64,000 nt of DNA from a candidate division WOR-1 bacterium RIFOXYB2_FULL_36_35 (GTDB taxonomy: Bacteria > Margulisbacteria > WOR-1 > XYC2-FULL-46-14 > XYC2-FULL-37-10), in contig MEUA01000005.1 in NCBI GenBank assembly GCA_001771505.1, positions 10,808 through 74,807 on the forward strand, in the 5' to 3' direction. The notes beneath the pieces were generated by a model. The model had not been told where the DNA came from. It saw only the letters and a list, made by a program, of their open reading frames with translations, and searched no databases. Positions 3,797 through 42,859 of this stretch are shown here, piece by piece. The position numbers and the translations under genes are program-made. How positions within the stretch are numbered: the stretch's first letter is position 1; every line of letters starts with the position of its first letter.

Positions 3797-4613
3797 GTAG
3801 CATGACAGGCTTCCCCCATTTTTCTTCTATCCCTTTTGTCAATATTTTATATCCAGGATTTATTTTCAGGAGAAAGGATGAAATCATCTCTGCATCTTCT
3901 TTTTTATGATAAGTTGTAATTGCTATTTTTGGTCTGTTTTTCTCTATTGTACGAACAGCCCCTTCAAGCATTTGAAGCTCAAACCCTTCAAGATCCGCTT
4001 TTAAATAATTTACATCAATCTCCTTTTCAAAAAACAGACTATCAATAGTAGAAATAGATATTCGATTTGATAAGTTATTTTTATTATCTTTTGACAAAGT
4101 TATAGATGAAAAAATCCCATTATTTGATATTACCCCTTCCCCTGTTTTATTAGACACAGCAACAGGCAAAAGAACAATATTGTCAATATTTTTAAAGCTC
4201 AATCTCATGGATTCAATAAATTCAGGTAATGGTTCAATCGCATAAACTCTTTTGCATCTGTCAGCTATCAACATGCCAAATAATCCTTCGGCAGCTCCAC
4301 AATCCACAACTATATCTTCCTTAGAAACCTTTGTTTCATCAACCTCATAATAATGCCAATCATTTGGATAAAACAGTTCAGCAATTACCTGATATAACAT
4401 TTTAAGGCTTGCGTTTTTAGGGTAATAAAAAGGTTTTTCAAAATTATTAAAATATATTTCAATGTCATTTTCTCTAATGTTTAAGCTTTTAATGACCTTT
4501 TTTGCTTTTCTCACATATGGCAGACCAAAGATTCTTTCAAGTAATGCAAAAAACGAAACTCCATTTTTGTTACCATCAAGCCACTGTTTTAAGATTGTAA
4601 AGCGTCCGAACAT
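3780..4613 (-). CDS. FkbM-family methyltransferase
   Basis: VVDCGAAEGLFGMLIADRCKRVYAIEPLPEF, the characteristic FkbM MTase core. It overlaps its neighbours (coupled translation). Confidence 0.6.
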   Translation of the reverse strand: MFGRFTILKQWLDGNKNGVSFFALLERIFGLPYVRKAKKVIKSLNIRENDIEIYFNNFEKPFYYPKNASLKMLYQVIAELFYPNDWHYYEVDETKVSKEDIVVDCGAAEGLFGMLIADRCKRVYAIEPLPEFIESMRLSFKNIDNIVLLPVAVSNKTGEGVISNNGIFSSITLSKDNKNNLSNRISISTIDSLFFEKEIDVNYLKADLEGFELQMLEGAVRTIEKNRPKIAITTYHKKEDAEMISSFLLKINPGYKILTKGIEEKWGKPVMLHAWSD

Positions 4614-5959
4614 AATATTTTATCTCCCAATGAGTCATGACGTTTAGTTTCTTTATAAATTTTACCAGAAAAATAATATAAAAAGATAAAGAAAAACATT
4701 CCATCAACAAAATAATTACCATACCTAATAAGCCTTAATAGAATCAGGACAAAAATACCATTATTGATGATTGACATGCGATTATAATAATCAAAATTAT
4801 TATCTGTTTTTTTGCTACTGTTTTTTGGAAAAATAAAAAATTTAATCAAAAAATAAAGAAGAATGATTACTCCAAAAAGCCCTGTTTCTGTTAATAACCT
4901 TAAAAACATTGAATTTGCATCATTTTTTGATACAAACAAGCCCCAGCCATGCACCAAAAAATCCCTATTATTTTTAAAAATCTCAGGGCCGATAAATTGC
5001 TCAACATATTTATCAAAAGCCTCAGGATAAGTGCCAAGTCCTGTGCCAAATAATGGAGTATTTTTTAATGACTCTATGGTAACTCCAAAATTTGCATACC
5101 AAATAAAGACACTTGCATCAACCAACATATTTGATGATTGCAATAATGAAGTTACTCCGTCAACCCTATTCTTAAAATCGGGAATTTTTGAATAAAAATT
5201 AGAAGCCAATATTGAAATTAAGATCAACGCTATAGGCAAATAAAAAATCCGTTTATTTTTCAAGCTAAAAAATCGATTTCTATATAAAATAAGAATCAAC
5301 GCAAAAAACAACCCCATATAACCAGTTGATGAAAATGTCAAGACAAAAGTCGACAAAATAATTATACTTCTAAAGAAATTCATATAAATTGAACTCCGTG
5401 TAAGAATATTATTCAACGCAACAAACATTGCAGGTGACAGTATAATTGACAAAACTGAAGGCTCTTGCATAATTGAATCTATTCTTACAAGACCGGACAA
5501 TCCATAAATAACGCGCTTCCCAGGGATAAAAAAACTCCAGTCATATCCATAACGGAATTTGATTAAAAAAGAAAATTCCTGAATCAGACCTAAAAGACAA
5601 ACAAAAAAAACCACATTTAAATATATACGAAAGAGATAATCAACATCATAATCATTTATTTTAATAAGCAGATAATAAGCTGATGCAGAAAAAAGGATTC
5701 CTAGCTGCTTCAAAACAAGAAGAACGGAAAAACCGCTAAAAGAAATATTAATAATAGAAAGAAAAAAAACAACAGAAAACAAAACAAAAAAAGTTGTATT
5801 GATAATTTCTACTCTATTCAAAAAAGCAATAACTAAAAAAACAAAAAATATTATATAAAATAGATAAAAGTCAAAAGCCCCTCGCAATAGAACAAAACTC
5901 CCCAAAAACATTGTCAAAACCATAATATAATTAACAATCACCTTAAATTCTAAACGCAC
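4589..5959 (-). CDS. O-antigen ligase / Wzy-like polymerase family integral membrane protein
   Basis: About 10-12 predicted TM helices and a large loop containing PLFGTGLGTYPEAF, which resembles the Wzy_C/O-antigen ligase loop motif. Confidence 0.5.
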   Translation of the reverse strand: MRLEFKVIVNYIMVLTMFLGSFVLLRGAFDFYLFYIIFFVFLVIAFLNRVEIINTTFFVLFSVVFFLSIINISFSGFSVLLVLKQLGILFSASAYYLLIKINDYDVDYLFRIYLNVVFFVCLLGLIQEFSFLIKFRYGYDWSFFIPGKRVIYGLSGLVRIDSIMQEPSVLSIILSPAMFVALNNILTRSSIYMNFFRSIIILSTFVLTFSSTGYMGLFFALILILYRNRFFSLKNKRIFYLPIALILISILASNFYSKIPDFKNRVDGVTSLLQSSNMLVDASVFIWYANFGVTIESLKNTPLFGTGLGTYPEAFDKYVEQFIGPEIFKNNRDFLVHGWGLFVSKNDANSMFLRLLTETGLFGVIILLYFLIKFFIFPKNSSKKTDNNFDYYNRMSIINNGIFVLILLRLIRYGNYFVDGMFFFIFLYYFSGKIYKETKRHDSLGDKILCSDALQS

Positions 5960-11048: not shown

Positions 11049-12182
11049 TTATTTACTGAACAAATTTATAATTTTTTTGCCAAATGCTACTATTTTTTTG
11101 TGCCAATAATCATAAGAAGGATAATCATAATGCGATTTTTTCTTGAGATCCATGATTTCTTCAAATACAGTTTCAGAAAACCCCATTTTTTTAAGAAAAA
11201 AATCCTTATCTTCTTTTAGTTTTTCGCGCGAATACAATTCTTTAGTTACTTTTTCTAGGGCTTCATCACGAGAAATTTGACCAGAAGAAATCAAGCAAGA
11301 AAGAAATGCACGTCGTTTATCCACATTATATTTAGTCGGTAAAATATAAGATTGATAAAACTGTGTTATTTTTGATTCACCATGTTTCCCTCCATAATCA
11401 CGCCAATCTAATTTATTTTTTAAAATATCAATAGCTTCTTCTTTTTTATAGGAAACATAATTTAAAATAGATATTACTTTGACACTATTAAAATATCTAT
11501 ATCTTATATATTCAAAAAAATTTAACAATGGAAACGTTTTAAGTTTCATACCACTTCCAAATCTTTTATATATTGATTTTATGTTTAAACTGTCATATTT
11601 TATATTAAAAAACCAACTTGGAGGCATTATAGATTCAGTTGCAAGATTAGTTCCAGCTAAAAAATATTTTATTTTCTCCCCTCTTGCTATCCTGTCAATT
11701 GCTACAACAATTGCATTATCTGAAAGCATTTCAAGATCAACGATAGATGCTCTTAAAAAAGAGATTTGTAAATCTTTAAATTCCTCCCAATCTATAACAT
11801 ACGTATACAAATCAATACCAAGTTTCCTCACGATGTTTTCTATGTTTTTAATTGCTAATTCTGAATTCCATCCATTATCAACATGTACGGCAAGAGGTCT
11901 AAGCCCCATATTTTTGACAAGGTAAGCAACATATGAACTATCAACCCCTCCACTTAAGCCAATGATACAATCATATTCTCTACCTTTTCCTGCCTTTTTC
12001 ATCTCAGAAAGCAGGTGTTTTAATGCTTCATCTTTAAGTTTCTCATCATTAAGGCCTATCTCTCTAAAAAGTTTTTGGTTGTTGTTGCAATAGTTACATA
12101 TGCCTCTCTCATCAAATTTTATATCAGGATCAGTTGTATCCATAATACACTTTTTGCAAATTTGATAATGACTAGTCTTCAT
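11049..12182 (-). CDS. N-acetyl sugar amidotransferase (WbpG/WbuX/PseA-like PP-loop enzyme, forms acetamidino groups)
   Basis: An N-terminal Cys-rich ribbon (CKKC ... CNYC) and a PP-loop GLSGGVDSS. It sits next to HisH/HisF paralogs, as in the WbuXYZ and Cj1314c-1316c arrangements. Confidence 0.75.
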   Translation of the reverse strand: MKTSHYQICKKCIMDTTDPDIKFDERGICNYCNNNQKLFREIGLNDEKLKDEALKHLLSEMKKAGKGREYDCIIGLSGGVDSSYVAYLVKNMGLRPLAVHVDNGWNSELAIKNIENIVRKLGIDLYTYVIDWEEFKDLQISFLRASIVDLEMLSDNAIVVAIDRIARGEKIKYFLAGTNLATESIMPPSWFFNIKYDSLNIKSIYKRFGSGMKLKTFPLLNFFEYIRYRYFNSVKVISILNYVSYKKEEAIDILKNKLDWRDYGGKHGESKITQFYQSYILPTKYNVDKRRAFLSCLISSGQISRDEALEKVTKELYSREKLKEDKDFFLKKMGFSETVFEEIMDLKKKSHYDYPSYDYWHKKIVAFGKKIINLFSK

Positions 12183-12191
12183 ATGTTTTAT

Positions 12192-12959
12192 TTATATATC
12201 CTTAAAAATATTTTCCAACTCATCTATTAATGGATAAGTAATTAATACCGCTCGATGCTTACCCTGAAAAACAAATATACTTCCAGCAGCAACAGCAGAA
12301 GCGCCCCCATCTTTAATAGCTAATTTAAAATCCTCAGTTTTTGAAGCTCCTCCACAAGCAACAACTGGAATTCGAACTACCTCACTAATAGATTTTATTA
12401 ATTTTATATCATAACCTTGTCCTGTCCCATCTCTATCTATGGAATTAATAAATAGTTCTCCAGCACCCAAACTTTCTACCTGTTTTGCATGTGTTACAGG
12501 ATCTAATCCTGTTTTCTGTTTCCCTCCCCTAATGTAGACTTCATGTTTTCCCCACAGATTACTTTTTACATCAATGGAAACAACAACACTTTGGCTTCCA
12601 AATATATTAGAAACGGATCTAATAAACTCTTGATTTTCTACTGCATAGCTATTTATAACAACTTTTTCAATGCCTAGATTAAATAATTTTCTTACGTCTT
12701 CAATGCTATTGACTCCCCCTCCATACCCTAAGGGCATAAAACATTCGCTTGCTATATCAGACAATAATGAATAATTTGGCTTTTTCCCTTCAATTGTAGC
12801 TGTAATATCAAGTATTATCAATTCATCAACTTCTTTGTCATTAAATATATTTACAGCATTTATGGGATCTCCAACATATTTAGGATTGGAAAATTTTATT
12901 GTTTTAACTAGTCCATTATTTTTTAATAACAGACAGGGAATAACCCGATTTTTCAACAT
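12192..12959 (-). CDS. HisF-like imidazole glycerol phosphate synthase cyclase-subunit paralog (WbuZ-like)
   Basis: NAVNIFNDKEVDELIILDITA ... GGASKTEDF, a HisF (beta/alpha)8 barrel signature. Confidence 0.8.
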   Translation of the reverse strand: MLKNRVIPCLLLKNNGLVKTIKFSNPKYVGDPINAVNIFNDKEVDELIILDITATIEGKKPNYSLLSDIASECFMPLGYGGGVNSIEDVRKLFNLGIEKVVINSYAVENQEFIRSVSNIFGSQSVVVSIDVKSNLWGKHEVYIRGGKQKTGLDPVTHAKQVESLGAGELFINSIDRDGTGQGYDIKLIKSISEVVRIPVVACGGASKTEDFKLAIKDGGASAVAAGSIFVFQGKHRAVLITYPLIDELENIFKDI

Positions 12960-13570
12960 AATTCAACAAAATTCCTTAATAATTTCATGCCAAACTTATG
13001 ACTCTTTTCCGGGTGAAATTGAACGCCATAAATATTTTCCTTTTGGACGCTTGAAACAAAATCATAGCCATAAAATGTTTTAGTTAATTCAGCACTAATA
13101 TCATTACATATAAGGTGATATGAATGCACAAAATAGAACTTGGGATCGCTAAACATTTCACTGAAAAGCAAACTTTTTTTCTGTGGAACAATCTGATTCC
13201 ATCCCATATGAGGAATTTTTAAGTTTTGGTCATGATCTTTTAAATTAAATCTAACTGTCTCAGCATCAATCCAGCCAAGTCCCGGCAATTCACCTTCTTC
13301 ACTTTTTTTGGTAAACAACTGCATGCCTAAACAGATGCCTAATATTGGACTTTTTTCTTTAAGAACTTTTTCTTCAAGAATCTCTATCAATCCTAATTGC
13401 TTAATCTTCCTCATCCCATTATCAAAAGAACCAACACCTGGAAATATAAACTTGCTCGCTTTTGCAATCACTGAAAGATCAGAAGATATTTGAGCCTCTA
13501 CCCCGATTTTTTTCAACATATTAAGGATTGAACCAAGATTTCCCATTCCATAATCAATAATAACTATCAT
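12953..13570 (-). CDS. HisH-like class I glutamine amidotransferase paralog (WbuY-like)
   Basis: MIVIIDYGMGNLGSILNMLKKIG ... GICLGMQLF ... FHPE, the Cys-His-Glu triad of a HisH-type GATase. Confidence 0.8.
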   Translation of the reverse strand: MIVIIDYGMGNLGSILNMLKKIGVEAQISSDLSVIAKASKFIFPGVGSFDNGMRKIKQLGLIEILEEKVLKEKSPILGICLGMQLFTKKSEEGELPGLGWIDAETVRFNLKDHDQNLKIPHMGWNQIVPQKKSLLFSEMFSDPKFYFVHSYHLICNDISAELTKTFYGYDFVSSVQKENIYGVQFHPEKSHKFGMKLLRNFVELC

Positions 13571-15051
13571 TCAATAATTCCTTTAACAGATAAACGTCCA
13601 TAATAATTCTTCATGAAGGTATTCATGGCTATTAATTTCAAAGGATTTTTAATTAATTTCAGTAAAAATCCTTTGAATAGTAAAAAGAACAGTTTAACCC
13701 ATAGAAACACTTTAAACATTCGTTTAAACTTATTTGACTCTAATTTTATTAAAGTATTAAAATTTAATGAATAGAAAAATAAAGATAACTTAGATAAATT
13801 TGGATGTTTTATTACAATATTTTCATAATAATTCGTATTTGGCTCCGCAATAATTAGTTTTTTGTCTTGATACCATTCAAATATTGGCGTTTTTTTAAAC
13901 GGCATAAAAATTGTACAAGCAGCAGAATCAACCTTTGCTTTGATATTTAAATCAATTCCTTCCCAAATAGTTTTTTCTGTATCCCCTGGCAAGCCAATCA
14001 TATTAAATGAATTAGTTCGAATATTATATTTTTTTAATATATGAAAAGCTTTTATAATTTGATCGTTTTTCATTTTACGATTCAGATATTTTTCTCTTAT
14101 ATACTCATTGCCAGATTCAATCCCTAAAGTAATGCTTTCACAACCAGAATTTGTTAATTCTTTAGCAATATCATCATTTATCGCTTCAACTCTTGTTTGA
14201 CATTCGAATGGAAGATTTACCTTGCTCTTATATAATTCTAAAAGTTTAAAAAGATTGTTTTTATTCATTGTAAAGGTTTCATCTGAAAAAATCACTTTTT
14301 TCAATTCAAACTTTGCCTTTACCTCTATAATCTCATCAATAACATTTCCCGGGCTTCTGAACCGCAGATATCCTTTATTTTGATTAAGCATAGCAGCATT
14401 ACAATAAAAACAATTATAAGGGCACCCTCTTCCAGTTATAAAATTAGCAGAATCCAAGACACCTTCTCTATAATAATATTTTAAAGGTTCTCTATCAGGA
14501 AAAGGATATTCATCTAAAGATAAAAAGACTTGTTCTTTCTTACTATTAATAATTTTGCCTTTTAACTTATAAGTTATATTTAGAGAATTTTCTTGAGTTA
14601 ATTTATTATTTAATATTAATTCAAGATACTGAGGCAACGAAAATTCTCCTTCACCAAGACAGACAGCATCAACATAATCCAACTTAATTATATTCTCCCC
14701 TTCTATCATAGAATGAATTCCGCCAAAGATTATGTGAGTTGTATTAAAGTTGGTTTTAATGTATTCTGCCCATGACTTAGATAAATTATAATTCGTACTT
14801 AATACCGAAAAGGTTACTACTTCTGGCCGAATTTGCTTCATAATATAATCTAGTTGATGCTGTATAAAATCATATTTTATCGGAAAGTGCATTATCAAAG
14901 ACAAATCAGGGAAAAAAACAACGCTATCAAATCCAGCTTTTTTGAGGGCTGATGAAATATACAAAGGCCCCAAACTAACCTCTCCACTACCTATTGATAT
15001 AGGAACAATGTTTAGTATTCTAGGCTTATTTGTTTTTTTGTAACTTTCCAT
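13567..15051 (-). CDS. B12-binding-domain radical SAM enzyme (class B radical SAM, probable methyltransferase/modifying enzyme)
   Basis: CxxxCxxC present as GRGCPYNCFYCNAAM. The N-terminal region matches the cobalamin-binding domain layout of this family. Confidence 0.65.
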   Translation of the reverse strand: MESYKKTNKPRILNIVPISIGSGEVSLGPLYISSALKKAGFDSVVFFPDLSLIMHFPIKYDFIQHQLDYIMKQIRPEVVTFSVLSTNYNLSKSWAEYIKTNFNTTHIIFGGIHSMIEGENIIKLDYVDAVCLGEGEFSLPQYLELILNNKLTQENSLNITYKLKGKIINSKKEQVFLSLDEYPFPDREPLKYYYREGVLDSANFITGRGCPYNCFYCNAAMLNQNKGYLRFRSPGNVIDEIIEVKAKFELKKVIFSDETFTMNKNNLFKLLELYKSKVNLPFECQTRVEAINDDIAKELTNSGCESITLGIESGNEYIREKYLNRKMKNDQIIKAFHILKKYNIRTNSFNMIGLPGDTEKTIWEGIDLNIKAKVDSAACTIFMPFKKTPIFEWYQDKKLIIAEPNTNYYENIVIKHPNLSKLSLFFYSLNFNTLIKLESNKFKRMFKVFLWVKLFFLLFKGFLLKLIKNPLKLIAMNTFMKNYYGRLSVKGIIE

Positions 15052-16180
15052 AAATTAATTCCAGTTTTCTATAATTAATATCCCAATTGGCTCTTTCTTG
15101 AGCAATTAAAAAATTTCTATGTCCCATTTTTATCCTAAGATTATGATTTGATAATAAATTTATCACTTTTGCAGAAATATCATTTGGACTTCTTGTCGGT
15201 ACAATGTATCCATTTTCACCATCATTTATCCACTCTAAATAAGAAGGAATATCTGTCGTAACAACAGGCAAAGAACAAGCCATTGCTTCTAAGAGAGATA
15301 AAGAAGTTCCATCGCTAAGAGAACAAGAAAGATATATATCTGCACTGTTGAAATACTCAGGCATTTTATCGTTAGGAATTGACTCCGCAAAATAAACATA
15401 GTCTCTTATGCCTAAATTAACCGTTAATTGTTCTAACTCCGAACGTAGTGGGCCATCCCCCACTAAAATAATACGAGTATTTGGATATGCTTTTATAATT
15501 TTTGGTATGGCTTTTATAAAATCATCCACAGCATAGATAGGGAAAAAAGATCTCGTCATTAATAAAATTTTTTTATCCTCCCAGCCTAAGGCTTTTCTTA
15601 TAAGGTTGTTTTTTTTATTTGGTTTAAATAAATCCAAATCTATTCCCCAAGGAAAAACTATTATTTTTTCGGAATCATAGTTTGAAAATTCAATAATTTT
15701 TTTCTTAACTATTTCACAATCACAAGTAATCATATCTGCTTTTGATAAAACATATTTTGTTTTACTCATCGTTCTTTTACTCTTCTCAGGAAAAACTAAT
15801 ATATCAGACCCCCAAGGCATTAATAAAAATGGATGAAAATCAGAAACTGCAGCTAAGAACCCATCTCCTTGCACCCAACCGGCATGAACAATATCAGGTT
15901 TTATTTTTTTTAGTTCTCTTTTAAACTTAATATAGCTTTGCATAAATGCTAACCAACATCTTATTTTTCTGGTAAAAATCGAATATTTTTCTGTCCCCAA
16001 TAAAACGGCATTAGGATTATAACGAATTATTTTTAGGCCTCTAAGGCCAGAAATATCTTGAGGCAAATCCTTTCCAGCAAAATGAGTAACAAGGTAAACA
16101 TCATGATCAAATTCACAAAGTTTTTTTAAGAATCTATAATCATGGACAATTAAATCTGAACTAATATAAAGAATACGCAT
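15026..16180 (-). CDS. GT4-type (GT-B) glycosyltransferase
   Basis: CSLSDGTSLSLLEAMACSLPVVTTD, the E-x7-E motif. Confidence 0.65.
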   Translation of the reverse strand: MRILYISSDLIVHDYRFLKKLCEFDHDVYLVTHFAGKDLPQDISGLRGLKIIRYNPNAVLLGTEKYSIFTRKIRCWLAFMQSYIKFKRELKKIKPDIVHAGWVQGDGFLAAVSDFHPFLLMPWGSDILVFPEKSKRTMSKTKYVLSKADMITCDCEIVKKKIIEFSNYDSEKIIVFPWGIDLDLFKPNKKNNLIRKALGWEDKKILLMTRSFFPIYAVDDFIKAIPKIIKAYPNTRIILVGDGPLRSELEQLTVNLGIRDYVYFAESIPNDKMPEYFNSADIYLSCSLSDGTSLSLLEAMACSLPVVTTDIPSYLEWINDGENGYIVPTRSPNDISAKVINLLSNHNLRIKMGHRNFLIAQERANWDINYRKLELIYGKLQKNK

Positions 16181-17280
16181 TAATAAAAATCCTTACCACT
16201 AACATTTTCCATGATTTCTTTAAACTTTGGAATAAAAATTTGAGAATATTTTTCCATTCCATCTGGAGACAAATGAGTTTCATCTATAAAAAATTCTCGA
16301 TCAAACTGAAAGTTTTTTTCGATGTCTATAATTGGAACATGACATTTATCTGCAGTTCTTCGAATATTTACATTTTCAATCAAAACACCTTTTTTAAGTT
16401 TTTTATATGTTGGTTTATTTTTTATTTCATCATAAACATAATATAAATAGGTAGTTAGTATGGGTAAAATGTTGTGTTCTTTGCATATTCCAATCATGGA
16501 TCTAATATTTTGATTTTCAACTGTAAGATTAAAATTATTAGAAAATAAGGGATAAGACTTTCTAATTAATCTGTTCAAGTCATAATTTATATTTCCAGTT
16601 CCCATATACTTATCTAACAAGTATTCATACAAATGCCAAAATTTAATTTTGGGTAATATATCTCTTGTTATCCTAATCAATTTAGATTCAGATAAATTTC
16701 GAAATAAATGGCTATAATCACTTTTAAACTCTGGCGCTAACGCAGGAATAAGATCATTAAGACCAAATCCAAATACAATAGCTTTAGGCTTAAGCTTAAC
16801 AAGAGTTGTGTAAAGATAAAATATAATATCCATGCTCGTCCATCCACCCCTTGCAACAGGTATAAAAGTATAATTGTCGCCAATCTTTTTATTTAAATAA
16901 TAAGGCAAAGAATAAAAAACTTCTTTATAATAATATCCTGTGCCAAAAGTGCAGTTACCTAAAAAAATAATTAAATTGTTTTTACTAACTAATTTCTCAT
17001 CAAACAATAAACCATATGAATTTGTTTTCATCGATGGATATATTAATTTATCATGAGTAATTGGTGATTCAACCTTTTCTTCTGGAATTGTACAATTTGT
17101 TTTATATGCGACTGGCAAGTATGGATGAGAAATAAAATGACTTTTATTAAATTCAATCTTATCAACCGGCTCATAAAATCTTCGATTTTTTAGTTTAAAA
17201 ACTATCCTAAAAACAATTTCACCTAAAACAATTAATAGTAAAATTATTGAAACCATTATATACAACACAATGTAAACCAA
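16180..17280 (-). CDS. membrane-anchored SGNH/GDSL-like hydrolase or O-acyltransferase-associated protein
   Basis: N-terminal TM helix. SGNH-like blocks FLGNCTFG (Cys where the Ser nucleophile sits), GFGLNDL (GxND) and DETHLSPDG (DxxH). Confidence 0.4.
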   Translation of the reverse strand: MVYIVLYIMVSIILLLIVLGEIVFRIVFKLKNRRFYEPVDKIEFNKSHFISHPYLPVAYKTNCTIPEEKVESPITHDKLIYPSMKTNSYGLLFDEKLVSKNNLIIFLGNCTFGTGYYYKEVFYSLPYYLNKKIGDNYTFIPVARGGWTSMDIIFYLYTTLVKLKPKAIVFGFGLNDLIPALAPEFKSDYSHLFRNLSESKLIRITRDILPKIKFWHLYEYLLDKYMGTGNINYDLNRLIRKSYPLFSNNFNLTVENQNIRSMIGICKEHNILPILTTYLYYVYDEIKNKPTYKKLKKGVLIENVNIRRTADKCHVPIIDIEKNFQFDREFFIDETHLSPDGMEKYSQIFIPKFKEIMENVSGKDFY

Positions 17281-19032: not shown

Positions 19033-20865
19033 TTAAGTATAAAAAGGCAATAAAGTTTGTTCTGTTAATGGCGAAAAAAAACTCTCCATCAACTGTCGTC
19101 CCCGAATTTTTATTTGATCAAGCTGCTTGTTAGTAAGCGTCAAAATCTTTTTTATTTCTCTTCCAATGTCTTCTGACGTTCGAGCTACAAACTGAGTTTC
19201 ATCCATTGAGATCCAATCCATAGGATCAAGAGTTAAATCAATATCGCTTCGCACTCTAATTACAGGCAATCCATAAGCGATAGCATCTAAAATTGTAGCT
19301 GAGGCTGTTGCAATCAACAACTTAGATTGTGCCATAAGATCATTAATATTTCCTTCTGTAATCTCAAATTTAAAAAAAGAATCAAACGTAACATTTAAAA
19401 TATCTTGCAATTCTTTCCTAGGCATCATTGGATGAGGCTTTATCAAGACTTTTAAATCCGAAATACTTTTTAATATTTTATAAGATTTTGATAATAATTC
19501 AAGAGCTGTAGATCGTAATAATGGAAGAGTTATCAAAATATAGAATTTCTCAATAGAATTACTAATATTTGCCTTTAATAAATATTGATAGCGCAAAGCT
19601 GGCCCCTCTGCCAAAACATTTGAAGGATATCCTTCTTTCAAAAGAATCTCTTTGAAAAACTTTCCTGAACAAATTACTTTATCCGGCAATGGTAGAACTT
19701 TCAGTTCATTAAATGAGGTATAGCAAGACAATAAAAGAGGAGGAATAGATGTATGTTGAAATCCAAGTAGCTTTGTTTTGGAATAATATTTTAATTTACC
19801 CATTATCAAGGGCTTCTCAGATATCATATTCTCAAAAGGTATAATGATTTTTTTTATTATAATTCCATTTTTTCTTAATTTCTCAACAAGAAAATAGTGC
19901 ATTATAAGACTTGACAAAGACCCTTCAAAAAAATCTCTTTTAAATGCTTGACGAAATATTAGCTTGAGGTTCCAGTCGTTGAATACAAAATCTTTTTTAA
20001 ACAAATGCCTTGATTTTAATATAATAAAAATAGTTTTTAAATAATCCGCTAAAGAATAAAAATCTTCAGGGATAATAAATTGAGCCTTTGCTTTTCTAAA
20101 CCACAAGATTGCTTCTTTATATGAACGTTTTATATTGTAAATTATTGGAATAATAGCAACAGTTTCTCCTTTTCTTTTTAAGTTTTCATGGAGGTCAACA
20201 AAATAAGAATCTTTAAATAGGCCCTCATCTCCCAAATTTCTTTCTCCTACCCAAGTTCTCAAAATTGTCAATGGTATATTTTTATTAATATGTTTTACAC
20301 CATAAATACGTGAATATATAACATATATTTTCTCTATAAAACTTCTTTTTGCAAAGCGGATTAAACTTATACAAGATTTCAAATAAAAACTCATCAATGC
20401 TTCTTTTTTATAGAATTTTGACACAGTATATTCTTTAAATAACTCAGATTCATAAATTGTCTCCAACAATTCAGGACTTTCAGAGAAAATACAAATGTTT
20501 TTATTTCTAATTTCATTTCCTTTTAATTGCTTAATAATATCCAAATAACAAACATACAGAAAAACGGGACTATCCATAACATTTTTTTCTGCTATTTTAG
20601 ATACCCACCAGTAAAAAGAAGAAAATCGACAGCTCAAATTGCCAATGAAATCAATATATTGTCTACGAAGTTTATATGATGTTGCGTATAAAAAGTCCCC
20701 TATGTCAATATAATGAAAATTTGAAGGCAAAGTTTTTTTTAGCTTTAATAATTTCTCATAGTCTCTACCCAAAAAAAAACAGTAAAAATCTCTATCCATA
20801 TCTTCTTTAGGAAAAGAAGCCTCCTCAGAAATTAATATTAACTTTTTTTTCTTTGAATTAGACAT
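19033..20865 (-). CDS. large (610 aa) GT-B-like transferase of uncertain specificity (capsule/teichoic-acid-type or CMP-sugar-dependent transferase)
   Basis: The C-terminal half, KVLIKPHPMM...LLIATASATILDAIAYGLPVIRV, matches the donor-binding half of GT-B enzymes. It lies directly upstream of a cytidylyltransferase. It is a paralog of the N-terminal region of the 32615-35122 ORF. Confidence 0.35.
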   Translation of the reverse strand: MSNSKKKKLILISEEASFPKEDMDRDFYCFFLGRDYEKLLKLKKTLPSNFHYIDIGDFLYATSYKLRRQYIDFIGNLSCRFSSFYWWVSKIAEKNVMDSPVFLYVCYLDIIKQLKGNEIRNKNICIFSESPELLETIYESELFKEYTVSKFYKKEALMSFYLKSCISLIRFAKRSFIEKIYVIYSRIYGVKHINKNIPLTILRTWVGERNLGDEGLFKDSYFVDLHENLKRKGETVAIIPIIYNIKRSYKEAILWFRKAKAQFIIPEDFYSLADYLKTIFIILKSRHLFKKDFVFNDWNLKLIFRQAFKRDFFEGSLSSLIMHYFLVEKLRKNGIIIKKIIIPFENMISEKPLIMGKLKYYSKTKLLGFQHTSIPPLLLSCYTSFNELKVLPLPDKVICSGKFFKEILLKEGYPSNVLAEGPALRYQYLLKANISNSIEKFYILITLPLLRSTALELLSKSYKILKSISDLKVLIKPHPMMPRKELQDILNVTFDSFFKFEITEGNINDLMAQSKLLIATASATILDAIAYGLPVIRVRSDIDLTLDPMDWISMDETQFVARTSEDIGREIKKILTLTNKQLDQIKIRGRQLMESFFSPLTEQTLLPFYT

Positions 20866-21595
20866 ACAGATTTTTTATTTTGTCTTTTTTCATAACATCT
20901 CTTACAATTGCCAGGTCTTCTGGTGTATCAACACTGATTTTTGCATCTTTAATTACAACTGCCCTTATTTTAATCCCGTGTTCCAAAATTCTTAAGTATT
21001 CATTATACTCTATAACTTCAAGAGGAGTTGGATCCCAAGAAGAATACTGCAACAAAAATTCTTTCCTAAATGGAACAATAAAACACATTTTCAACATTTC
21101 TCTTACATTTGTCCTGGCATTGCTTGGCAAATCTGCCCTAGAACAGTATAAAATATTTCCTTCCAAATCCAGTACTGCCTTTATATCAGAAGAACTTTCT
21201 TTTTTTGCATAAGATGTAACTCCTACTGAAATGTTAAGAGAAGAGTCTTCTATTAGTGGAGTAATAACCAAATCGATATGATCAGGGCTAACCAAAGGCT
21301 CATCACCCTGAACGTTAACAACAATATCACATTCTATTTGTTGACAAGCCTCGGCAAGACGATCAGATCCTGTTTTATGATGTTTTCCTGTCATGATAAC
21401 TTTAACACCATATTTCTCTCCTGCAACCTTTATCTCGTCACTATCTGTCACCAAATAAACTTCAGAAAGAAGTTTTGACCTTTGAGCTCGTTTGCAAGTA
21501 TGTATCACCATGGGAATTCCTTCTATGTCTATTAAAGCCTTCCTTGGCAACCTGCTTGATTCAAGCCTTGCCGGAACCATACCTACAATTTTCAT
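20858..21595 (-). CDS. KdsB/NeuA-family CMP-ulosonate cytidylyltransferase
   Basis: MKIVGMVPARLESSRLPRKAL, the signature N-terminal motif of the CMP-Kdo / CMP-NeuAc synthetase family. Confidence 0.75.
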   Translation of the reverse strand: MKIVGMVPARLESSRLPRKALIDIEGIPMVIHTCKRAQRSKLLSEVYLVTDSDEIKVAGEKYGVKVIMTGKHHKTGSDRLAEACQQIECDIVVNVQGDEPLVSPDHIDLVITPLIEDSSLNISVGVTSYAKKESSSDIKAVLDLEGNILYCSRADLPSNARTNVREMLKMCFIVPFRKEFLLQYSSWDPTPLEVIEYNEYLRILEHGIKIRAVVIKDAKISVDTPEDLAIVRDVMKKDKIKNLYV

Positions 21596-21602
21596 TTATC
21601 TC

Positions 21603-22373
21603 TTACACTCCCTTAAAATCTTGAATTATTTTTTTAAAAATCCTAAAAAGCTCGGTTACTTCCAAAGAATAAGTTATAAACTGTATTCCAATTTCCTTAA
21701 ACCATTTAAGCTGTTCTTGATTGTCAGTAAAAGCTCCAACAGAAATTCCTTTCTCTCTCACCTTAGCAACAGCTCTTAAAACGGCATCTTTTACTTTTGG
21801 GTGAGTTATTTGTCCTGGCAAACCAATTGATTGGGAAATATCACAAAGCCCTAAGTAAATAACATCAATATCTTTATCCTCAATAATAGAATCAAGGTTT
21901 TCTAGTCCATTTTTACCTTCTACAATAAAAATACTCATAGTCTCTTCATTGGCTTTTTTAGTATGAAGAGTAAGATCAGAGGGTGAATAACCTGCAGAAC
22001 GAGTGAAAGGAGAAAAGCCACGATTTCCTATGGGAAAATATTTAATAGACTGTAATGCCTTTTCTTTATCTGCCCTGTTTTCAATATGTGGAACCACAAC
22101 TCCATACGCCCCAATGTCTAAAGCTCGCAGTATATCTGATTCATCGTTTTTTGGGACACGAATAAAAGGTGTACAGCCCTCAACTTCAGATGCTCGAATC
22201 ATACCCTCTGCAGTTTCAAAACTAATAGGCCCATGTTCCATATCTATTATTACAAAATCCAAGCCCGAAGCTCCCAAAACATTAACAGAAGATTCTGAAG
22301 GTAAAATACACCAAGTACCTAAAAGAATTTCTCCTTTTTTTAATTTTTCCTTAATAATATTCTTTCTTATCAT
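21603..22373 (-). CDS. HpcH/HpaI-family class II (pyruvate-specific) aldolase
   Basis: A TIM-barrel pattern, EHGPISFETAEGMIRA ... PFIRVP ... VEGKNGLENLD, typical of 2-keto-3-deoxy-acid aldolases. Confidence 0.7.
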   Translation of the reverse strand: MIRKNIIKEKLKKGEILLGTWCILPSESSVNVLGASGLDFVIIDMEHGPISFETAEGMIRASEVEGCTPFIRVPKNDESDILRALDIGAYGVVVPHIENRADKEKALQSIKYFPIGNRGFSPFTRSAGYSPSDLTLHTKKANEETMSIFIVEGKNGLENLDSIIEDKDIDVIYLGLCDISQSIGLPGQITHPKVKDAVLRAVAKVREKGISVGAFTDNQEQLKWFKEIGIQFITYSLEVTELFRIFKKIIQDFKGV

Positions 22374-22388
22374 ATATTTATTTTCTCC

Positions 22389-23144
22389 TTAAAAAACTTC
22401 TATTTTAGAAACATCATCAATTAAGAATTTAGTTAAAGCGCCTAACTGTTCTTTTGGAGTTATCCCAGAAGAAACAGCAATAGATGCTTTTACTTTTGCA
22501 TTATCACCCATTTTTATATCTGTTATGGCATCCCCGATCATCACACTTTCTTCTTTTTTAATATTCAATTTCTTTGTAATATAATCAATCATGTCTGAAG
22601 CAGGCTTAGGATTGTCAACTGCATCACAACCAATAATACAGGCAAATTTATCAGTTAATTTTAAGTAATCCATAGACAACTCAGCCCTTGATGTTTTATC
22701 TGTAGTTGCAATGGCTAGTTTGCAAGATTTTGAATGTAAAGAATCAATTAAACTCAACATTCCATTTATTGGTTTTATCAAACCATCCAACTTGTTTTCT
22801 GTTTGAACATCAATATCTTTAAAACAATCCAAACAAACTTCATAAGCTTTTTTATACCCTTTTGCCTCTAAATAATCAACAGCCGCCTGCATAACTATTT
22901 CTCTCTTTTTGATCCCAACGGGTCCTTCTGGACGAAGACAATTATTTTCTTGGTCAACCCCCATCTCAAAAACAATCCGGTTTGTATCATCTTTTGATAA
23001 AAAAAACTTTTCTGATATAAGATAAGCCCGCATCTTTATCATTTGAGACCAATAATGATACAAATCAATTAATGTACCATCCCTGTCAAAAATGACTAAA
23101 TTAATATTATTAATAATTTCGTTATTAACTTTTAAATTAACCAC
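22389..23144 (-). CDS. HAD-superfamily hydrolase (phosphatase)
   Basis: Motif I VIFDRDGTLID (DxD), plus later K and DD motifs. Confidence 0.65.
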   Translation of the reverse strand: MVNLKVNNEIINNINLVIFDRDGTLIDLYHYWSQMIKMRAYLISEKFFLSKDDTNRIVFEMGVDQENNCLRPEGPVGIKKREIVMQAAVDYLEAKGYKKAYEVCLDCFKDIDVQTENKLDGLIKPINGMLSLIDSLHSKSCKLAIATTDKTSRAELSMDYLKLTDKFACIIGCDAVDNPKPASDMIDYITKKLNIKKEESVMIGDAITDIKMGDNAKVKASIAVSSGITPKEQLGALTKFLIDDVSKIEVF

Positions 23145-24141
23145 TAATTGCCTCCAAATTTTGATCGACTAATTTTTTTGCAATCACAAGCCCTTTTTTT
23201 AAAATCCTCAAATCACTGTCAAAATCTTTATGATTTATAAATTCAGCAACCAGTTTACGGGCATAAGTCCCAATGGAAACCCCATTAACTTTAACCCCAC
23301 AAAGATGACAAAGTTCACCTGTTCTACTATTAGTACCACCTGAAGCCAAAATAATAACCGGCAATTTACTTTTTCTTACAATATCAGAAATTGCAACTGC
23401 CTGAAGAGTAGTATTGTAATCATCGCTTCCCCCACTCATTGGAACGCCATCTGCTTGAATAATCATTCTATCAGGAGCAAAAGCCAAAGCATCCTTTATT
23501 CTCTTCAAAAGATGTATATCAGACAATTGTGAACGATCTAAACACATACTAATATAATTATTTTTTAAATACTTATTCACCAATTTCCAATCCTGCATGA
23601 CAGAATCATCATCGGAAATAATTGCATGCAATTCAAATGTTTCCACTCCATTTACTAAACAAGCAGGGAGTATTTTATCTAATTCTCTCCTTTTATCAAA
23701 AAACTGAACTGCGCTTGAAGGGCAAATTTTTGAACATTCACCACAACCGATACAACGTTTTTCTATTATTTGATGCTCATTACTAATTGCATTTTGAACA
23801 CACACAGACAAACAAGCCCCGCAATGGAGACACTTGGCCTGGGCAACATTCGCTTTCCTAATATGAGGATCACCACGCATACCAATGCTAACATTAATAA
23901 ATGGTCTTGTTCTAAGCTCTATTCCAAGTTTTGGCGCAATCTCGTAGGCTTGATTAACTCCAAGGACAGAACTTTTTACTACATCAAGATTTGCTGAAAT
24001 ATCAATACCAAGTGCGCCAGCTAAAGTATAAAGAAGAGACAACTTTCGAACCTCTTCTGCATCTTCATTTCCAGCTCCACACACAATTTTAAAGTATTGA
24101 CTCTTCTCAAAAATCGATTTTAACTCTTCAAATCTATTCAT
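23137..24141 (-). CDS. 4Fe-4S dicluster (ferredoxin-type) domain protein with an additional uncharacterised domain
   Basis: Two CxxCxxCxxxCP motifs, CLHCGACLSVC and CIGCGECSKICP. The flanking ~250 aa are unrecognised. Confidence 0.6.
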   Translation of the reverse strand: MNRFEELKSIFEKSQYFKIVCGAGNEDAEEVRKLSLLYTLAGALGIDISANLDVVKSSVLGVNQAYEIAPKLGIELRTRPFINVSIGMRGDPHIRKANVAQAKCLHCGACLSVCVQNAISNEHQIIEKRCIGCGECSKICPSSAVQFFDKRRELDKILPACLVNGVETFELHAIISDDDSVMQDWKLVNKYLKNNYISMCLDRSQLSDIHLLKRIKDALAFAPDRMIIQADGVPMSGGSDDYNTTLQAVAISDIVRKSKLPVIILASGGTNSRTGELCHLCGVKVNGVSIGTYARKLVAEFINHKDFDSDLRILKKGLVIAKKLVDQNLEAISG

Positions 24142-25853
24142 AAGTAATTATTTATCCCTTTGTAAAACTTCCTATAATTTGTAGGAGTAATAATGTGAAT
24201 CCCTTCCCCTCCCTTACCACACAGATATTCCTCAATTTCCTCCAAATGCTTTAAATTTCCAAAATGTTTATCCAAAATCACATCTCTATCCCCAGTTTCA
24301 TCATTTTCTTTATAAAAATGAACATCCCCATCAGCAGTAGCGCGCATATAACCATCAAGTCCTGCGACAAAAATACGTTTTGCTCCAAAAACCCATGATA
24401 AAGCAATTAAGAAGATAGAAACAGTTCTGCAATTTGAACTAATTAATCCATCTTTGATATCAAAGGCAACATCATCTAGATCATTATAATAAATAAGTTC
24501 ATACTCGCGTCTTACATAATCATCAATCATCTCCTTTGGAATATGTTGACCAATTAAAAGCTTAGATTTGAGAGAAACAGTATCCACATAGTCAACAAAC
24601 CGACGCTTATTGGTAAATAAGTGATAATCAGGAACAAAAAGCCCTCCTAAGTAATTAGCCCCTAAAACTATTGGTTTGTACTTTTCAATAAAAAGAGAAA
24701 TTAAGTCTTTATACTTTTTTAAACTTGGTCCATTTGCCAAAACCAAAAAATCTGACCCATTATGTCTATTAACATAAGAAATTTTGTCACTGTTTTCGTT
24801 TATCCCTTTTTGTTCATTTTCAGCAGGTTTTAAAGCCTTTTTCTTGCCAAATAGTCCATCACGAATAATTTGATCAACAATGTCTTTTTTAAAGCCTATT
24901 GGTTTCTTGGCTTTTATGACTTCAAAAATATTCCAGATATCTTCAATGTCATACTCTTTTCGCTCAACCAAATTTTTAGCATAGTTTGGATGACATTCAT
25001 TAATACCTGAAAGCATATAGGGTAAATTATATCCCCAAAAGTTTTTTTCTTTTAGTTCAACAAAAAATCGATCAATCAAATTTAATACTGGGATTACGTT
25101 ATACTTGCCTGGCATCATTTGATGAAAATAGGAAAGTAAAATTTCTGTTGGTAAATTACCAGCACCACGCCCCATACCAAAAACAGAAGAATCAACAATA
25201 TCTACTCCAGCATCAATTGCAGCAAAAGTATTAGCAAAAGACATTAGTAAATTATTATGTGGATGAAATCCTAATTTAAAGTTTCTATCCTTTAACAAAG
25301 GGGTAAACAACTCTTTTATTTCATGAGGAAACATGGACCCATAGCTATCAGCTATATATACGTAATCTATCCCCTCTTGATTAATTAAAAAAACTAATTC
25401 ATTTAACTCGTCAGTAGAATAACTAATGTATCCCATCAAATTTACAGACACTAAAAAGCCAAGTCTTTTTATTTGTCCCGCAATATTAACTGCTTCCTTT
25501 GCTTTATCTTTATGAAAGGCCAACCTAATTAATGAAACATTGGTACCAAGATATTGGTTTAAATCATTTAAATCAAACTTACCATAATCAACCATTAAAG
25601 CAATTTTTGCCCCATTTATTCCTCCTGTAACACTTTTTATATCTTCAAAAGAAGTAAAACGAAATCTCCCAAACTTTTTAGGATCAAAAAAATGTTCTAC
25701 TCCATGATAGCCCAATTCTATATAATCAATACCAGCTTTTGAGAGTGCTCGATAGGTTTCACGTACTAATTTGAGATCAAAATCCCAATTGTTAACATAT
25801 CCCCCATCACGAATGGTACAATCAAGAATTTCTATTTTATTCTTATCCTTCAC
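24138..25853 (-). CDS. fusion protein: N-terminal HMGL-like (DRE-TIM metallolyase / pyruvate carboxyltransferase) aldolase domain + C-terminal CstII/Maf (DUF115)-like sialyltransferase-like domain
   Basis: N-terminal ILDCTIRDGGY ... FHPHNN (DRE-TIM family). C-terminal VLANGPSLKKY ... VAGLDGY resembles the GNGPSL and SGIDFY regions of GT42 sialyltransferases and Maf proteins. Confidence 0.45.
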   Translation of the reverse strand: MKDKNKIEILDCTIRDGGYVNNWDFDLKLVRETYRALSKAGIDYIELGYHGVEHFFDPKKFGRFRFTSFEDIKSVTGGINGAKIALMVDYGKFDLNDLNQYLGTNVSLIRLAFHKDKAKEAVNIAGQIKRLGFLVSVNLMGYISYSTDELNELVFLINQEGIDYVYIADSYGSMFPHEIKELFTPLLKDRNFKLGFHPHNNLLMSFANTFAAIDAGVDIVDSSVFGMGRGAGNLPTEILLSYFHQMMPGKYNVIPVLNLIDRFFVELKEKNFWGYNLPYMLSGINECHPNYAKNLVERKEYDIEDIWNIFEVIKAKKPIGFKKDIVDQIIRDGLFGKKKALKPAENEQKGINENSDKISYVNRHNGSDFLVLANGPSLKKYKDLISLFIEKYKPIVLGANYLGGLFVPDYHLFTNKRRFVDYVDTVSLKSKLLIGQHIPKEMIDDYVRREYELIYYNDLDDVAFDIKDGLISSNCRTVSIFLIALSWVFGAKRIFVAGLDGYMRATADGDVHFYKENDETGDRDVILDKHFGNLKHLEEIEEYLCGKGGEGIHIITPTNYRKFYKGINNYL

Positions 25854-27681
25854 AGGCTACCTCTTTTCGAACAAACTGGTTCGACAAACTACTTCTTTCT
25901 TTATTATATATTGCCCAATAAAACCCTTTCATTGAAAGAAGCTCTTCATGTTTTCCCTCCTCAACAACCTCTCCCTTTTCAAGCACAATAATTTTGTCAG
26001 AATCAATCACTGTAGAAAGCCGATGAGCTATAACAATAACAGTTCTATTTCTAGAAATATTATTTATTGCTTTTTGAACTATTGCTTCTGAAATGTTGTC
26101 TAAAGAACTTGTAGCTTCATCTAAAATAAGTATTTCAGGTTTATGAACCAAAGCTCTAGCAATTGCAATACGCTGCCTCTGCCCTCCAGATAATTTCATT
26201 CCCCTATCTCCAACAACAGTTTCATATCCGTCAGCAAGAGATGCTACAAAGTCATGAACATTCGCATCTTTTGCAGCTTGAATAATCTCATTCATATCAA
26301 CATTTAGACCAAAAGCAATATTCTCTGCAAGTGACGCATTAAATATAAAGGTATCTTGAGTAACAAATCCTATTTTTGAAAGCCAGGAACTTATTTTACA
26401 ATCTTTAATATCTATGCCATCAATTAAAATTCTGCCATAATTAACATCAAAAAGCCTTATAATTAAATCTGCAATCGTAGACTTGCCCGCGCCAGAATGA
26501 CCAACAATAGCAGTCATTTTCCCCTTTTCAAAAGAAAGCTTCAATCCCTTCAACACTCCTTTACGCCCAGGATAAGAAAAACTTACATCCTCAAATTTTA
26601 TCTCTTTCTTAAATTCTTTTATCTCCTCGGGCCCATCCTTAATTTGCTTAATATTCTTATTTAAAAGTGAGTAAAGAATTTCTACAATAGGCAAAGTTCC
26701 CATAATTTGAATTCTCAAATTCCCAAGTTGTGAAAGAGAAGGCATTATTTTTTGAAAAGCATACGCAAATGTCCCAAGTATTGGCAAAATAACTGCAAAA
26801 TCAGCAGAATATAAAACTTTGGCTAAAATCAGCAATAACGATAAAAGCACGATAGTCATCGTATCCAATAAATACCCTGGTATAAGTGAGAACTCCCTAT
26901 CTTTTTTTGCCAATTTAAAATAGTCCTGCATAGCTGCAAAAAAGTTCTTTATCCAACGATTTTCAGAAGAAAACACTTTTATTTGTCTTATCCCGCTTAT
27001 TGTTTCACCAAGTAAAACATTTTGTTTCTCACAAGCCACCACTCGCCCCTTCCCCATGTTGTAAGAAATATTACTTGCTATATACTTAGTTAAATAATAA
27101 TATAAAACACCGACCAAAATTATCGCGCCTGATGCATAAGGTGAAATCCCGATCAAAATAAACCCAACTGCCAATAATTTAGCAAACTCTGAAAGAGCTT
27201 GAGGTAAATAAGTAAGAATACTGCCAAGGGACGATGGCGCAGAATAAACCCGATATATAATTTCTCCTTGTTTATGATCAAGGAAATACTGATAATCTGC
27301 AGAAATACATTTTACAAATACTTTTTCTTGAATGTCCTGCCAAACTTTAAAGCCAGCAACAGAACTAACAATGCTCTGTAAATATCCAAACCCATTCTTA
27401 AAAATTACTGAAAAAATAAGCAATAGACAAGAGCTAATAAGTTTGTCTTTTATAGGAAAAAAATTTAAAATAAAAGTTATTATCTTGGCAATTCCTCCTG
27501 CATCAGCATTAATTCCAACCGCAGAATTTAATATTGAGAATAATATCAATACATTGATACCATCAAAAAAAGAACTCGCAAAAGTTAATATAGTAATTCC
27601 AAAAATATAATGCGGATACGGCTTTAAAAAATACCAACATATTTTCAAGCGAGGATTATTTATAAAATTTAAGAATTTCAT
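25843..27681 (-). CDS. ABC exporter, fused TMD-NBD (MsbA/PglK-like lipid-linked glycan or lipid flippase type)
   Basis: Six predicted N-terminal TM helices. Walker A GHSGAGKST, signature LSGGQRQRIAIARAL, Walker B ILILDEATSSLD. Confidence 0.85.
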   Translation of the reverse strand: MKFLNFINNPRLKICWYFLKPYPHYIFGITILTFASSFFDGINVLILFSILNSAVGINADAGGIAKIITFILNFFPIKDKLISSCLLLIFSVIFKNGFGYLQSIVSSVAGFKVWQDIQEKVFVKCISADYQYFLDHKQGEIIYRVYSAPSSLGSILTYLPQALSEFAKLLAVGFILIGISPYASGAIILVGVLYYYLTKYIASNISYNMGKGRVVACEKQNVLLGETISGIRQIKVFSSENRWIKNFFAAMQDYFKLAKKDREFSLIPGYLLDTMTIVLLSLLLILAKVLYSADFAVILPILGTFAYAFQKIMPSLSQLGNLRIQIMGTLPIVEILYSLLNKNIKQIKDGPEEIKEFKKEIKFEDVSFSYPGRKGVLKGLKLSFEKGKMTAIVGHSGAGKSTIADLIIRLFDVNYGRILIDGIDIKDCKISSWLSKIGFVTQDTFIFNASLAENIAFGLNVDMNEIIQAAKDANVHDFVASLADGYETVVGDRGMKLSGGQRQRIAIARALVHKPEILILDEATSSLDNISEAIVQKAINNISRNRTVIVIAHRLSTVIDSDKIIVLEKGEVVEEGKHEELLSMKGFYWAIYNKERSSLSNQFVRKEVACEG

Positions 27682-42096: not shown

Positions 42097-42859
42097 TTTC
42101 TCTAAACCTCTTCCATCTTCTCACTACTTTTTGATTTATTTTCTTCAATGCCTCATTCTGATCTAAATAATCCAAAATTTCAGCTAAAGAAAAATAATCC
42201 TTTCCTATACTGTTAAAATGTTTAAATATCCTAGATATAAGTTCAAAATCTTCACACGTATCGACTTCCAAATAAATATCTGGATGATAATAATGAGAAG
42301 GGGCTTCCAAATTACAAATTCTATATTTATGCTTATTTTGCGTAATGTGTATACTAACGTGCTCCCTTAATGGATCATTTCTTAAAACAAATTCATCGGC
42401 TTTTATTAATGCTTTTCCATTATATACTATTACTTCTTGCCCAGGAGGGTAAGTTGTTTTTAGTGAATTTGATACAAAATCATACACATTTTTATATTTT
42501 AGATAATAACCAATGAATTCATCAACGATTTGCGGATCTGGAAGAGGAGAATCCCCAAAAAACTCAACATGTACATCTACTTTAAATTTTTTTATTAAAG
42601 AAGCAATTCTATTTAAAACATCATTTTCGCTACCTCGGAAATATTTAATGTTATGATTATAACAAAGACTAACAATTTCATCATCGCTTGAACTAGTAGT
42701 TGTAGCAACTACTATATCATCTAATAATCTAGACTTTTTTATTCTCTCTATTTGCTGCAAAAGCATGGGTTTACCGGAAATTTCTTTTAAGACTTTTCCT
42801 GGCAAACGAGTCGAACCCATCCTTGCTTGAATAGAACCAATTATTCTTAATTTTTTCAA
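42089..42859 (-). CDS. NeuA/PseF/LegF-family CMP-nonulosonate cytidylyltransferase
   Basis: LRIIGSIQARMGSTRLPGKVL. Confidence 0.75.
   Translation of the reverse strand: MKKLRIIGSIQARMGSTRLPGKVLKEISGKPMLLQQIERIKKSRLLDDIVVATTTSSSDDEIVSLCYNHNIKYFRGSENDVLNRIASLIKKFKVDVHVEFFGDSPLPDPQIVDEFIGYYLKYKNVYDFVSNSLKTTYPPGQEVIVYNGKALIKADEFVLRNDPLREHVSIHITQNKHKYRICNLEAPSHYYHPDIYLEVDTCEDFELISRIFKHFNSIGKDYFSLAEILDYLDQNEALKKINQKVVRRWKRFRENV

Follow-up and report, generated by a model that had tools for sequence, protein, structure and literature searches.

A B12-domain radical SAM enzyme gene in a cell-surface glycan locus of a candidate division WOR-1 bacterium

Described sugar-modifying enzymes and the candidate gene

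The class B radical S-adenosylmethionine (SAM) enzymes that have been described to C-methylate sugars include GenK, GenD1, Fms7, and MoeK5 (PMC12931638, PMC9204698). Such modification of sugars by class B enzymes is known from antibiotics such as gentamicin, fortimicin, and moenomycin. Here we analyzed a gene for a B12-domain radical SAM protein (13567..15051, minus strand) in a stretch of 64,000 nucleotides (hereafter the window, whose numbering is used throughout) from contig MEUA01000005.1 of candidate division WOR-1 bacterium RIFOXYB2_FULL_36_35. With confidence somewhat short of even, we propose that the product of this gene is a cobalamin-dependent (class B) enzyme acting on the locus's cell-surface glycan, a sugar of which it would tailor by radical C-methylation, with a GT4 glycosyltransferase as its partner. 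Like the window protein, GenK, GenD1 (GntE), and Fms7 possess an N-terminal B12 domain and a radical SAM core, and according to published descriptions they methylate unactivated sp3 carbons of already glycosidically linked sugars, which is the reaction proposed here (PMC12931638, PMC9204698). However, they belong to actinomycete antibiotic (aminoglycoside) pathways, whereas the window gene is part of a cell-envelope glycan locus.

Several other class B proteins are useful for comparison. MoeK5 (the moenomycin sugar C-methyltransferase) and HpnJ (ring contraction of hopanoid glucosamine) both modify the sugar moiety in a lipid-linked glycoconjugate, and the two co-cluster with Fom3 in a published sequence network (PMC9204698); neither hopanoid nor moenomycin genes were detected in the window. 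AprD4 (PDB 6FD2), the apramycin 1,2-diol dehydratase, is found among class B sequences yet does not bind cobalamin (PMC12931638), and its N-terminal domain was not recognized by our profile, whereas the window protein retains the Gly-Gly, Gly-Glu, and SxL motifs of cobalamin sites. Class B enzymes with solved structures, i.e., TokK, CysS, MgmA (QCMT), TsrM, and OxsB, share 14-19% identity with the window protein; their substrates are a carbapenem, a cystobactamid, a protein glutamine, tryptophan, and a nucleotide, respectively, and their C-terminal domains differ from that of the window protein.

When the window protein was compared with curated NCBIfam families, none of the 25 listed (of 35 matched) reached its cut-off. 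The top match was BchE, the anaerobic Mg-protoporphyrin IX monomethyl ester cyclase (116.7 versus 481 bits, residues 28-446), followed by the ladderane-lipid radical SAM family (105.8 versus 360); scores were also below cut-off for PhpK (103.7 versus 600), HpnJ (91.7 versus 578, or 577.6 before rounding, so that the window protein is not a member), BzaD (77.1 versus 450), KedN5 (70.3 versus 700), MgmA (68.9 versus 360), and HpnR (48.2 versus 650). The AprD4 family (NF033070) gave 65.3 bits versus 500 over residues 206-421 only. The name BchE, which some sources give to relatives of this protein, is considered an over-annotation in view of the cut-off and of a context without tetrapyrrole genes.

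Architecture and cofactor motifs

The open reading frame has an ATG start and specifies 494 amino acids plus a stop codon, and its product matches 'hypothetical protein A2230_08240' from candidate division WOR-1 (Saganbacteria) bacterium RIFOXYA2_FULL_36_21 at 100% identity. Pfam searches placed both expected domains above cut-off: Radical_SAM (PF04055) with 96.2 bits versus 29.5 at residues 205-366, and B12-binding (PF02310) with 41.6 bits versus 32.1 at residues 19-139. Within the segment GRGCPYNCFYC, residues C210, C214, and C217 form the CxxxCxxC motif (CPYNCFYC, 14401..14424, minus strand) that ligates the radical SAM [4Fe-4S] cluster, and all three are invariant in 64 of 64 relatives. 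An AlphaFold2 model built on these 64 relatives (predicted local distance difference test score, pLDDT, 90.1; predicted template modeling score 0.87) resembles class B radical SAM enzymes and consists of three parts, i.e., an N-terminal Rossmann domain of the cobalamin-binding type (residues 11-147; 14611..15021, minus strand), a partial TIM-barrel core of alternating β/α elements (approximately residues 201-381; 13909..14451, minus strand), and a helical C-terminal region. Among PDB entries, the family profile matched AprD4 best (146 bits), over profile positions 152-418, i.e., the core and C-terminal part only. A HemN-type core with a C-terminal HemN domain and without a Rossmann N-terminal domain, which would point to the anaerobic coproporphyrinogen oxidase-like (HemN-like) group, was not found. 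Collectively, these data support assignment to the class-B-type (B12-domain) radical SAM enzymes and agree with the initial annotation, which had reported a 494-residue class B radical SAM protein with a CPYNCFYC motif and an N-terminal cobalamin-binding-like domain.

The N-terminal domain contains five parallel strands in the model (residues 11-15, 42-46, 78-82, 106-110, and 129-131) with helices between them. A base-off/His-off cobalamin site has been described as a five-strand Rossmann fold with Gly-Gly on β4, Gly-Glu at the start of α5, and a G-x-S-x-L motif (PMC9204698), and counterparts of these elements are present in the window protein. Residues G110-G111 (14719..14724, minus strand), which correspond to the Gly-Gly motif of the pocket for the dimethylbenzimidazole tail, are located at the end of β4, follow S82 by 28 residues (the classical spacing), and are invariant in all 64 relatives. 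The Gly-Glu motif is represented by G133-E134-G135-E136 (14644..14655, minus strand; conserved in 61, 63, 58, and 60 of the 64 relatives, respectively), with α5 beginning at residue 135 in the model; it aligned with GEGE of TokK, CysS, and MgmA and with KEGE of OxsB, and the correspondence to TokK, CysS, and OxsB was also seen in alignments of the N-terminal domain only. The counterpart of G-x-S-x-L is T80-F-S82-V-L84, in which Ser and Leu are kept and Gly is replaced by Thr (Gly in 35, Ala in 19, Cys in 5, and Thr in 2 members of the family); S82, which belongs to the 'downstream Cbl-binding motif' (SxL; S82-V-L84, 14800..14808, minus strand), is conserved in 55 of 64 relatives. A profile of the N-terminal domain only, searched against PDB, retrieved TokK (E-value 1.3e-10), OxsB (2.7e-8), 4Q37 (6.8e-8), TsrM (1.6e-7), and CysS (5.5e-4) together with marginal matches to true corrinoid proteins, and AprD4 was not matched even at E<=1. 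As a single sequence, the domain had no significant match in PDB, and the clear answer came from the family profile only. Judged by these sequence features, the window protein likely binds cobalamin.

The C-terminal tail (residues 421-494; 13570..13791, minus strand) is basic, hydrophobic, and helical. Its last 75 residues contain 14 Lys and Arg against 2 Asp and Glu, the highest Kyte-Doolittle score in a 19-residue span is 1.91 (FLWVKLFFLLFKGFLLKLI), and three helices are present in the model (residues 421-436, 440-466, and 470-486) at lower pLDDT. Such a basic, amphipathic tail was common to 20 of the 20 top relatives examined. It might serve as a peripheral membrane anchor, which would fit an enzyme acting on lipid-linked intermediates.

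Glycan context and proposed function

The radical SAM gene lies in a run of about 56 consecutive genes (1053 to 61467), all on the minus strand and with frequent overlaps of start and stop codons. In the direction of reading, the order is a GT4 glycosyltransferase gene (15026..16180, minus strand; Glyco_trans_4_2 with the PF13477 N-terminal domain, and Glycos_transf_1), the radical SAM gene, three genes for acetamidino-forming amidotransferase functions (hisH-like, AglZ/HisF2, and WbuX; 11049..13570, minus strand), and then more glycosyltransferases and a methyltransferase. The radical SAM ATG is situated 26 nucleotides within the 3' end of the GT4 gene, and its stop codon (TGA) and the start codon (ATG) of the hisH-like gene share bases (ATGA), so that the trio is translationally coupled to it here. 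Considering that the operon is read from high to low coordinates, the radical SAM gene is upstream of the trio and not directly downstream of it, as had been stated with no strand given. Its placement between glycosyltransferases holds on the 5' side only, since the 3' neighbor is the trio and the next glycosyltransferase lies beyond it. No other radical SAM genes or paralogues were found in the window.

The GT4 gene is the neighbor that is conserved among relatives. Close relatives of the window protein are limited to three (P0002, P0004, and P0003, with 90%, 57%, and 50% identity, respectively), and a metagenome scan for closer relatives found none above 33% identity. All eight examined relatives with at least 35% identity reside in glycan loci containing genes for GT1 or GT2 glycosyltransferases, DegT aminotransferases, short-chain dehydrogenases/reductases (SDR), class-I methyltransferases, Wzm/Wzt, STT3, or PMT. 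Strong homologues of the window GT4 (174-349 bits) were detected 0.7-1.5 kb from the radical SAM homologue in four independent contexts (L003/L004, L005, L006, and L039), and a PF13477 glycosyltransferase also adjoins it in L001 and L088. The neighboring glycosyltransferase was tested as a member of a system for peptides that are made by ribosomes and modified after translation (RiPP system), which was rejected (TIGR04157, 'glyco_rSAM_CFB', 70 bits versus 400).

We also examined 80 loci from GTDB species representatives that carry relatives with 25-35% identity, found in both bacteria and archaea, including the Candidate Phyla Radiation (CPR) and DPANN. Their 132 immediate neighbors include 28 radical SAM proteins (24 with a B12 domain), 11 GT2, 5 GT9, and 4 GT1 glycosyltransferases, 6 class-I methyltransferases, and 5 DegT aminotransferases. 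Paralogous B12-domain radical SAM genes are frequent within single loci (eight in L065; five each in L013, L063, L067, and L069; and four within 15 kb in L088) and are interleaved with glycosyltransferases and methyltransferases, suggesting that one glycan may receive several radical modifications. L013 (NZ_CAZEQU010000039.1 38443-59756) belongs to a cultured marine flavobacterium, Tenacibaculum xiamenense WJ-1(T), and contains five B12-domain radical SAM genes and a SPASM radical SAM gene beside an HldE-like heptose kinase/nucleotidyltransferase, a GT9 heptosyltransferase-like protein, GT87, and methyltransferases. Moreover, two relatives are fused to sugar-decorating domains: P0048 (L091, 5635-8199) to TIGR04371, a 'putative sugar O-methyltransferase' (95.5 bits, cut-off 44), and P0073 to a WbbJ/Vat-like hexapeptide O-acetyltransferase. 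Such fusions put the family with enzymes that decorate sugars. Thus, conserved context and domain fusions speak well for a sugar or glycan as the substrate, and the window protein, which belongs to an unstudied branch, probably methylates or otherwise radically alters a sugar. The suggestion of a C-methylated or otherwise radical-modified sugar is sustained with respect to the substrate, but methylation itself is not established by any curated family at cut-off.

In the mechanism we favor, the [4Fe-4S] cluster bound by CxxxCxxC would cleave SAM reductively to yield a 5'-deoxyadenosyl radical, which would remove a hydrogen at an unactivated carbon of the sugar. The N-terminal Rossmann domain would hold methylcobalamin in the base-off/His-off state, this cofactor would then methylate the substrate radical, and the resulting cob(I)alamin would be re-methylated by a second SAM, giving a C-methyl (branched or chain-extended) sugar as the product. 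The enzyme is probably paired with the adjacent GT4, whose glycan intermediate, either made or used by this glycosyltransferase and probably lipid-linked, would be the substrate. A possible site is the cytoplasmic face of the membrane, where the basic amphipathic tail would hold the enzyme.

Several observations bear on C-methylation, most of them weighing against it. The reaction cannot be assigned by homology, because no curated family reaches its cut-off and even the best score, that of BchE, lies far below it. Hydrophobic lower axial faces of cobalamin have been associated with radical methylases and hydrophilic ones with other chemistry (PMC12931638). At this face, Leu84 of the window protein aligns with Asn186 (N186) of OxsB and Arg69 (R69) of TsrM, and Met, Thr, Leu, or Val prevail at this position in the family; however, the equivalents of Trp76 and Trp215 of TokK are Thr86 and Ala219, so that the window protein lacks a hydrophobic stack of the TokK type, and Leu84 supports methylation only weakly. 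The locus is rich in class-I methyltransferases, which would make a +14 Da signal ambiguous by itself, and many carriers of this radical SAM family are CPR or DPANN organisms, which rarely make cobamides. In addition, several class B enzymes do not methylate, such as BchE, HpnJ, and OxsB.

The alternative that survives best, though we regard it as rather unlikely, is that the window protein is a radical sugar enzyme without methylating activity, which might carry out an AprD4-like 1,2-diol dehydration, an oxidation to a keto-sugar that is then processed by DegT or SDR enzymes, or a ring contraction like that of HpnJ or OxsB, with cobalamin either absent or used as an electron sink. The similarity of the core to AprD4 speaks for this possibility, as do the top NCBIfam match of the window protein, since BchE is not a methylase, and the fact that HpnJ is the top NCBIfam match of the fused relatives P0048 and P0073 (145 and 155 bits, respectively). 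DegT and SDR genes that directly flank the radical SAM homologue in L001, L005, L006, and L090 speak for it as well; however, genes of these two kinds are frequent in glycan loci of every sort, and in the window neither kind adjoins the radical SAM gene. The AprD4 family model matches poorly and only outside the N-terminal domain, and the profile of that domain retrieved five cobalamin-binding radical SAM domains and not AprD4. Strong conservation of the Gly-Gly, Gly-Glu, and SxL motifs would also be unexpected if cobalamin were dispensable.

It is considerably less probable, and in our view a slim chance, that the radical SAM protein and the amidotransferase trio act on the same sugar, for example by methylation of the methyl carbon of an acetimidoyl or N-acetyl group to propionimidoyl or propionyl, or by another change of the amidine. 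The trio is genuine, as originally annotated: WbuX (274.9 bits, cut-off 203.2) and AglZ/HisF2 (373.3, cut-off 310) exceed their NCBIfam cut-offs, and the HisH-like protein scores 236.1 bits. The ATGA overlap implies co-translation, and candidate targets of amidination are encoded in the locus, namely two NeuB-type nonulosonate pathways and a WbpA/B/E-like di-N-acetyl-uronate pathway. Nevertheless, the overlap carries little weight because gene overlaps are the rule throughout the operon. In 119 loci (1.66 Mb) with relatives of the radical SAM gene, WbuX-like and HisF-like genes were absent and a single HisH-like gene was detected; no trio was observed near the relatives with 57% and 50% identity; neither GATase nor His_biosynth was among the top neighbor families in the GTDB loci; and the conserved partner of the radical SAM gene is the GT4. 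A conserved four-gene system is therefore not supported, although a shared substrate, as in the original suggestion that the acetamidino group is methylated, is possible in this particular organism.

A non-sugar substrate (a polyprenyl or lipid carrier, a lipid anchor, a protein, or a peptide, with the gene merely encoded in a glycan locus) is about equally improbable, because, although the second-best NCBIfam match is a ladderane lipid B12-domain enzyme, the hydrophobic, basic tail suggests membrane association, and several class B enzymes work on lipids or peptides (PMC12931638), all such family scores are far under their cut-offs, the fusion partners of relatives are sugar O-methyl- and O-acetyltransferase-type domains, the neighbors are glycosyltransferases, sugar aminotransferases, and epimerases, and no lipid-synthesis or precursor-peptide gene appears among the 25 most frequent neighbor families.

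The architecture of the window protein is standard, and databases already name its relatives 'B12-binding domain-containing radical SAM protein'; for the window gene itself, the result is a solid improvement on the annotation 'hypothetical protein' rather than a system of a novel kind. The novelty lies in the placement of the window protein in an uncharacterized branch, phylogenetically broad and with a consistent link to cell-surface glycan loci and a GT4 partner. A full-text literature search for B12-domain radical SAM proteins in O-antigen, polysaccharide, exopolysaccharide, or glycan loci returned nothing relevant, and it found no report of a class B enzyme acting on a cell-surface polysaccharide or a glycoprotein glycan; the paper on the Kuenenia S-layer glycan does not mention radical SAM genes. 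More speculatively, and with doubt prevailing, a broad clade of cobalamin-dependent radical SAM enzymes might have been recruited to envelope glycan assembly, in mostly anaerobic bacteria and archaea, CPR and DPANN lineages among them, usually as partners of a GT4, often with 2-8 paralogues per locus, and adding C-methyl groups or other radical modifications to lipid-linked surface glycans at unactivated carbons. If so, this would be an undescribed class of glycan decoration and would make the cell surface dependent on cobamides: many uncultured anaerobes would have surface glycans with radical-installed branches beyond the reach of ordinary SAM methyltransferases, the synthesis of these glycans would depend on cobamides supplied by the community, and the many paralogues would be a source of new regio-specific enzymes for C-H functionalization. 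The cultured carrier Tenacibaculum xiamenense makes the function of the family testable in a possibly tractable organism.

The surrounding glycan locus

The segment from 1053 to 61467 represents one glycan locus of roughly 60 kb, in a window with a G+C content of 31.4% whose annotated genes are glycan genes only. It includes a Wzy_C-type ligase/polymerase (4589-5959), an ATP-binding cassette exporter with a fused transmembrane domain (25843-27681), and at least seven class-I or FkbM methyltransferases. A GDSL-like protein just under the Pfam cut-off is encoded at 16180-17280. Several large open reading frames (340-610 amino acids) have no Pfam match (19033-20865, 37297-39066, 42856-43878, 54804-56369, and 56366-57739), and the first of these shows a weak match to TIGR04326, 'LIC13510 surface carbohydrate biosynthesis' (58.7 bits versus a cut-off of 250).

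A five-gene block (20858-25853, minus strand) encodes a KdsB-like CMP-ulosonate cytidylyltransferase (256.5 bits, cut-off 255), an HpaI/GarL-like pyruvate aldolase, a HAD phosphatase, an LdpA-like double [4Fe-4S] protein (160 bits, below cut-off), and a 571-residue protein resembling 4-hydroxy-2-oxovalerate aldolase/HMGL. This block looks like an uncharacterized pathway for a 2-keto-3-deoxy (ulosonic) acid with an odd Fe-S component. Two NeuB-type nonulosonate synthases, two more CMP-sugar cytidylyltransferases (one of them an 835-residue protein whose first ~595 residues have no Pfam match), and PseB-like and PseC-like genes are also present (28764-29813, 44489-45568, 32615-35122, 42089-42859, and 35119-37266), and the products of the locus seem to include at least two nonulosonic acids besides a Kdo-like sugar. 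Finally, genes for a UDP-sugar dehydrogenase, a GFO/IDH/MocA oxidoreductase, and DegT aminotransferases (49567-53534, minus strand) show a WbpA/WbpB/WbpE-like arrangement, a route to 2,3-diacetamido-2,3-dideoxy-uronic acids. Such acids are a classic substrate of WbpG/WbuX-type amidotransferases, and the trio at 11049-13570 thus has a candidate target in the product of these genes.

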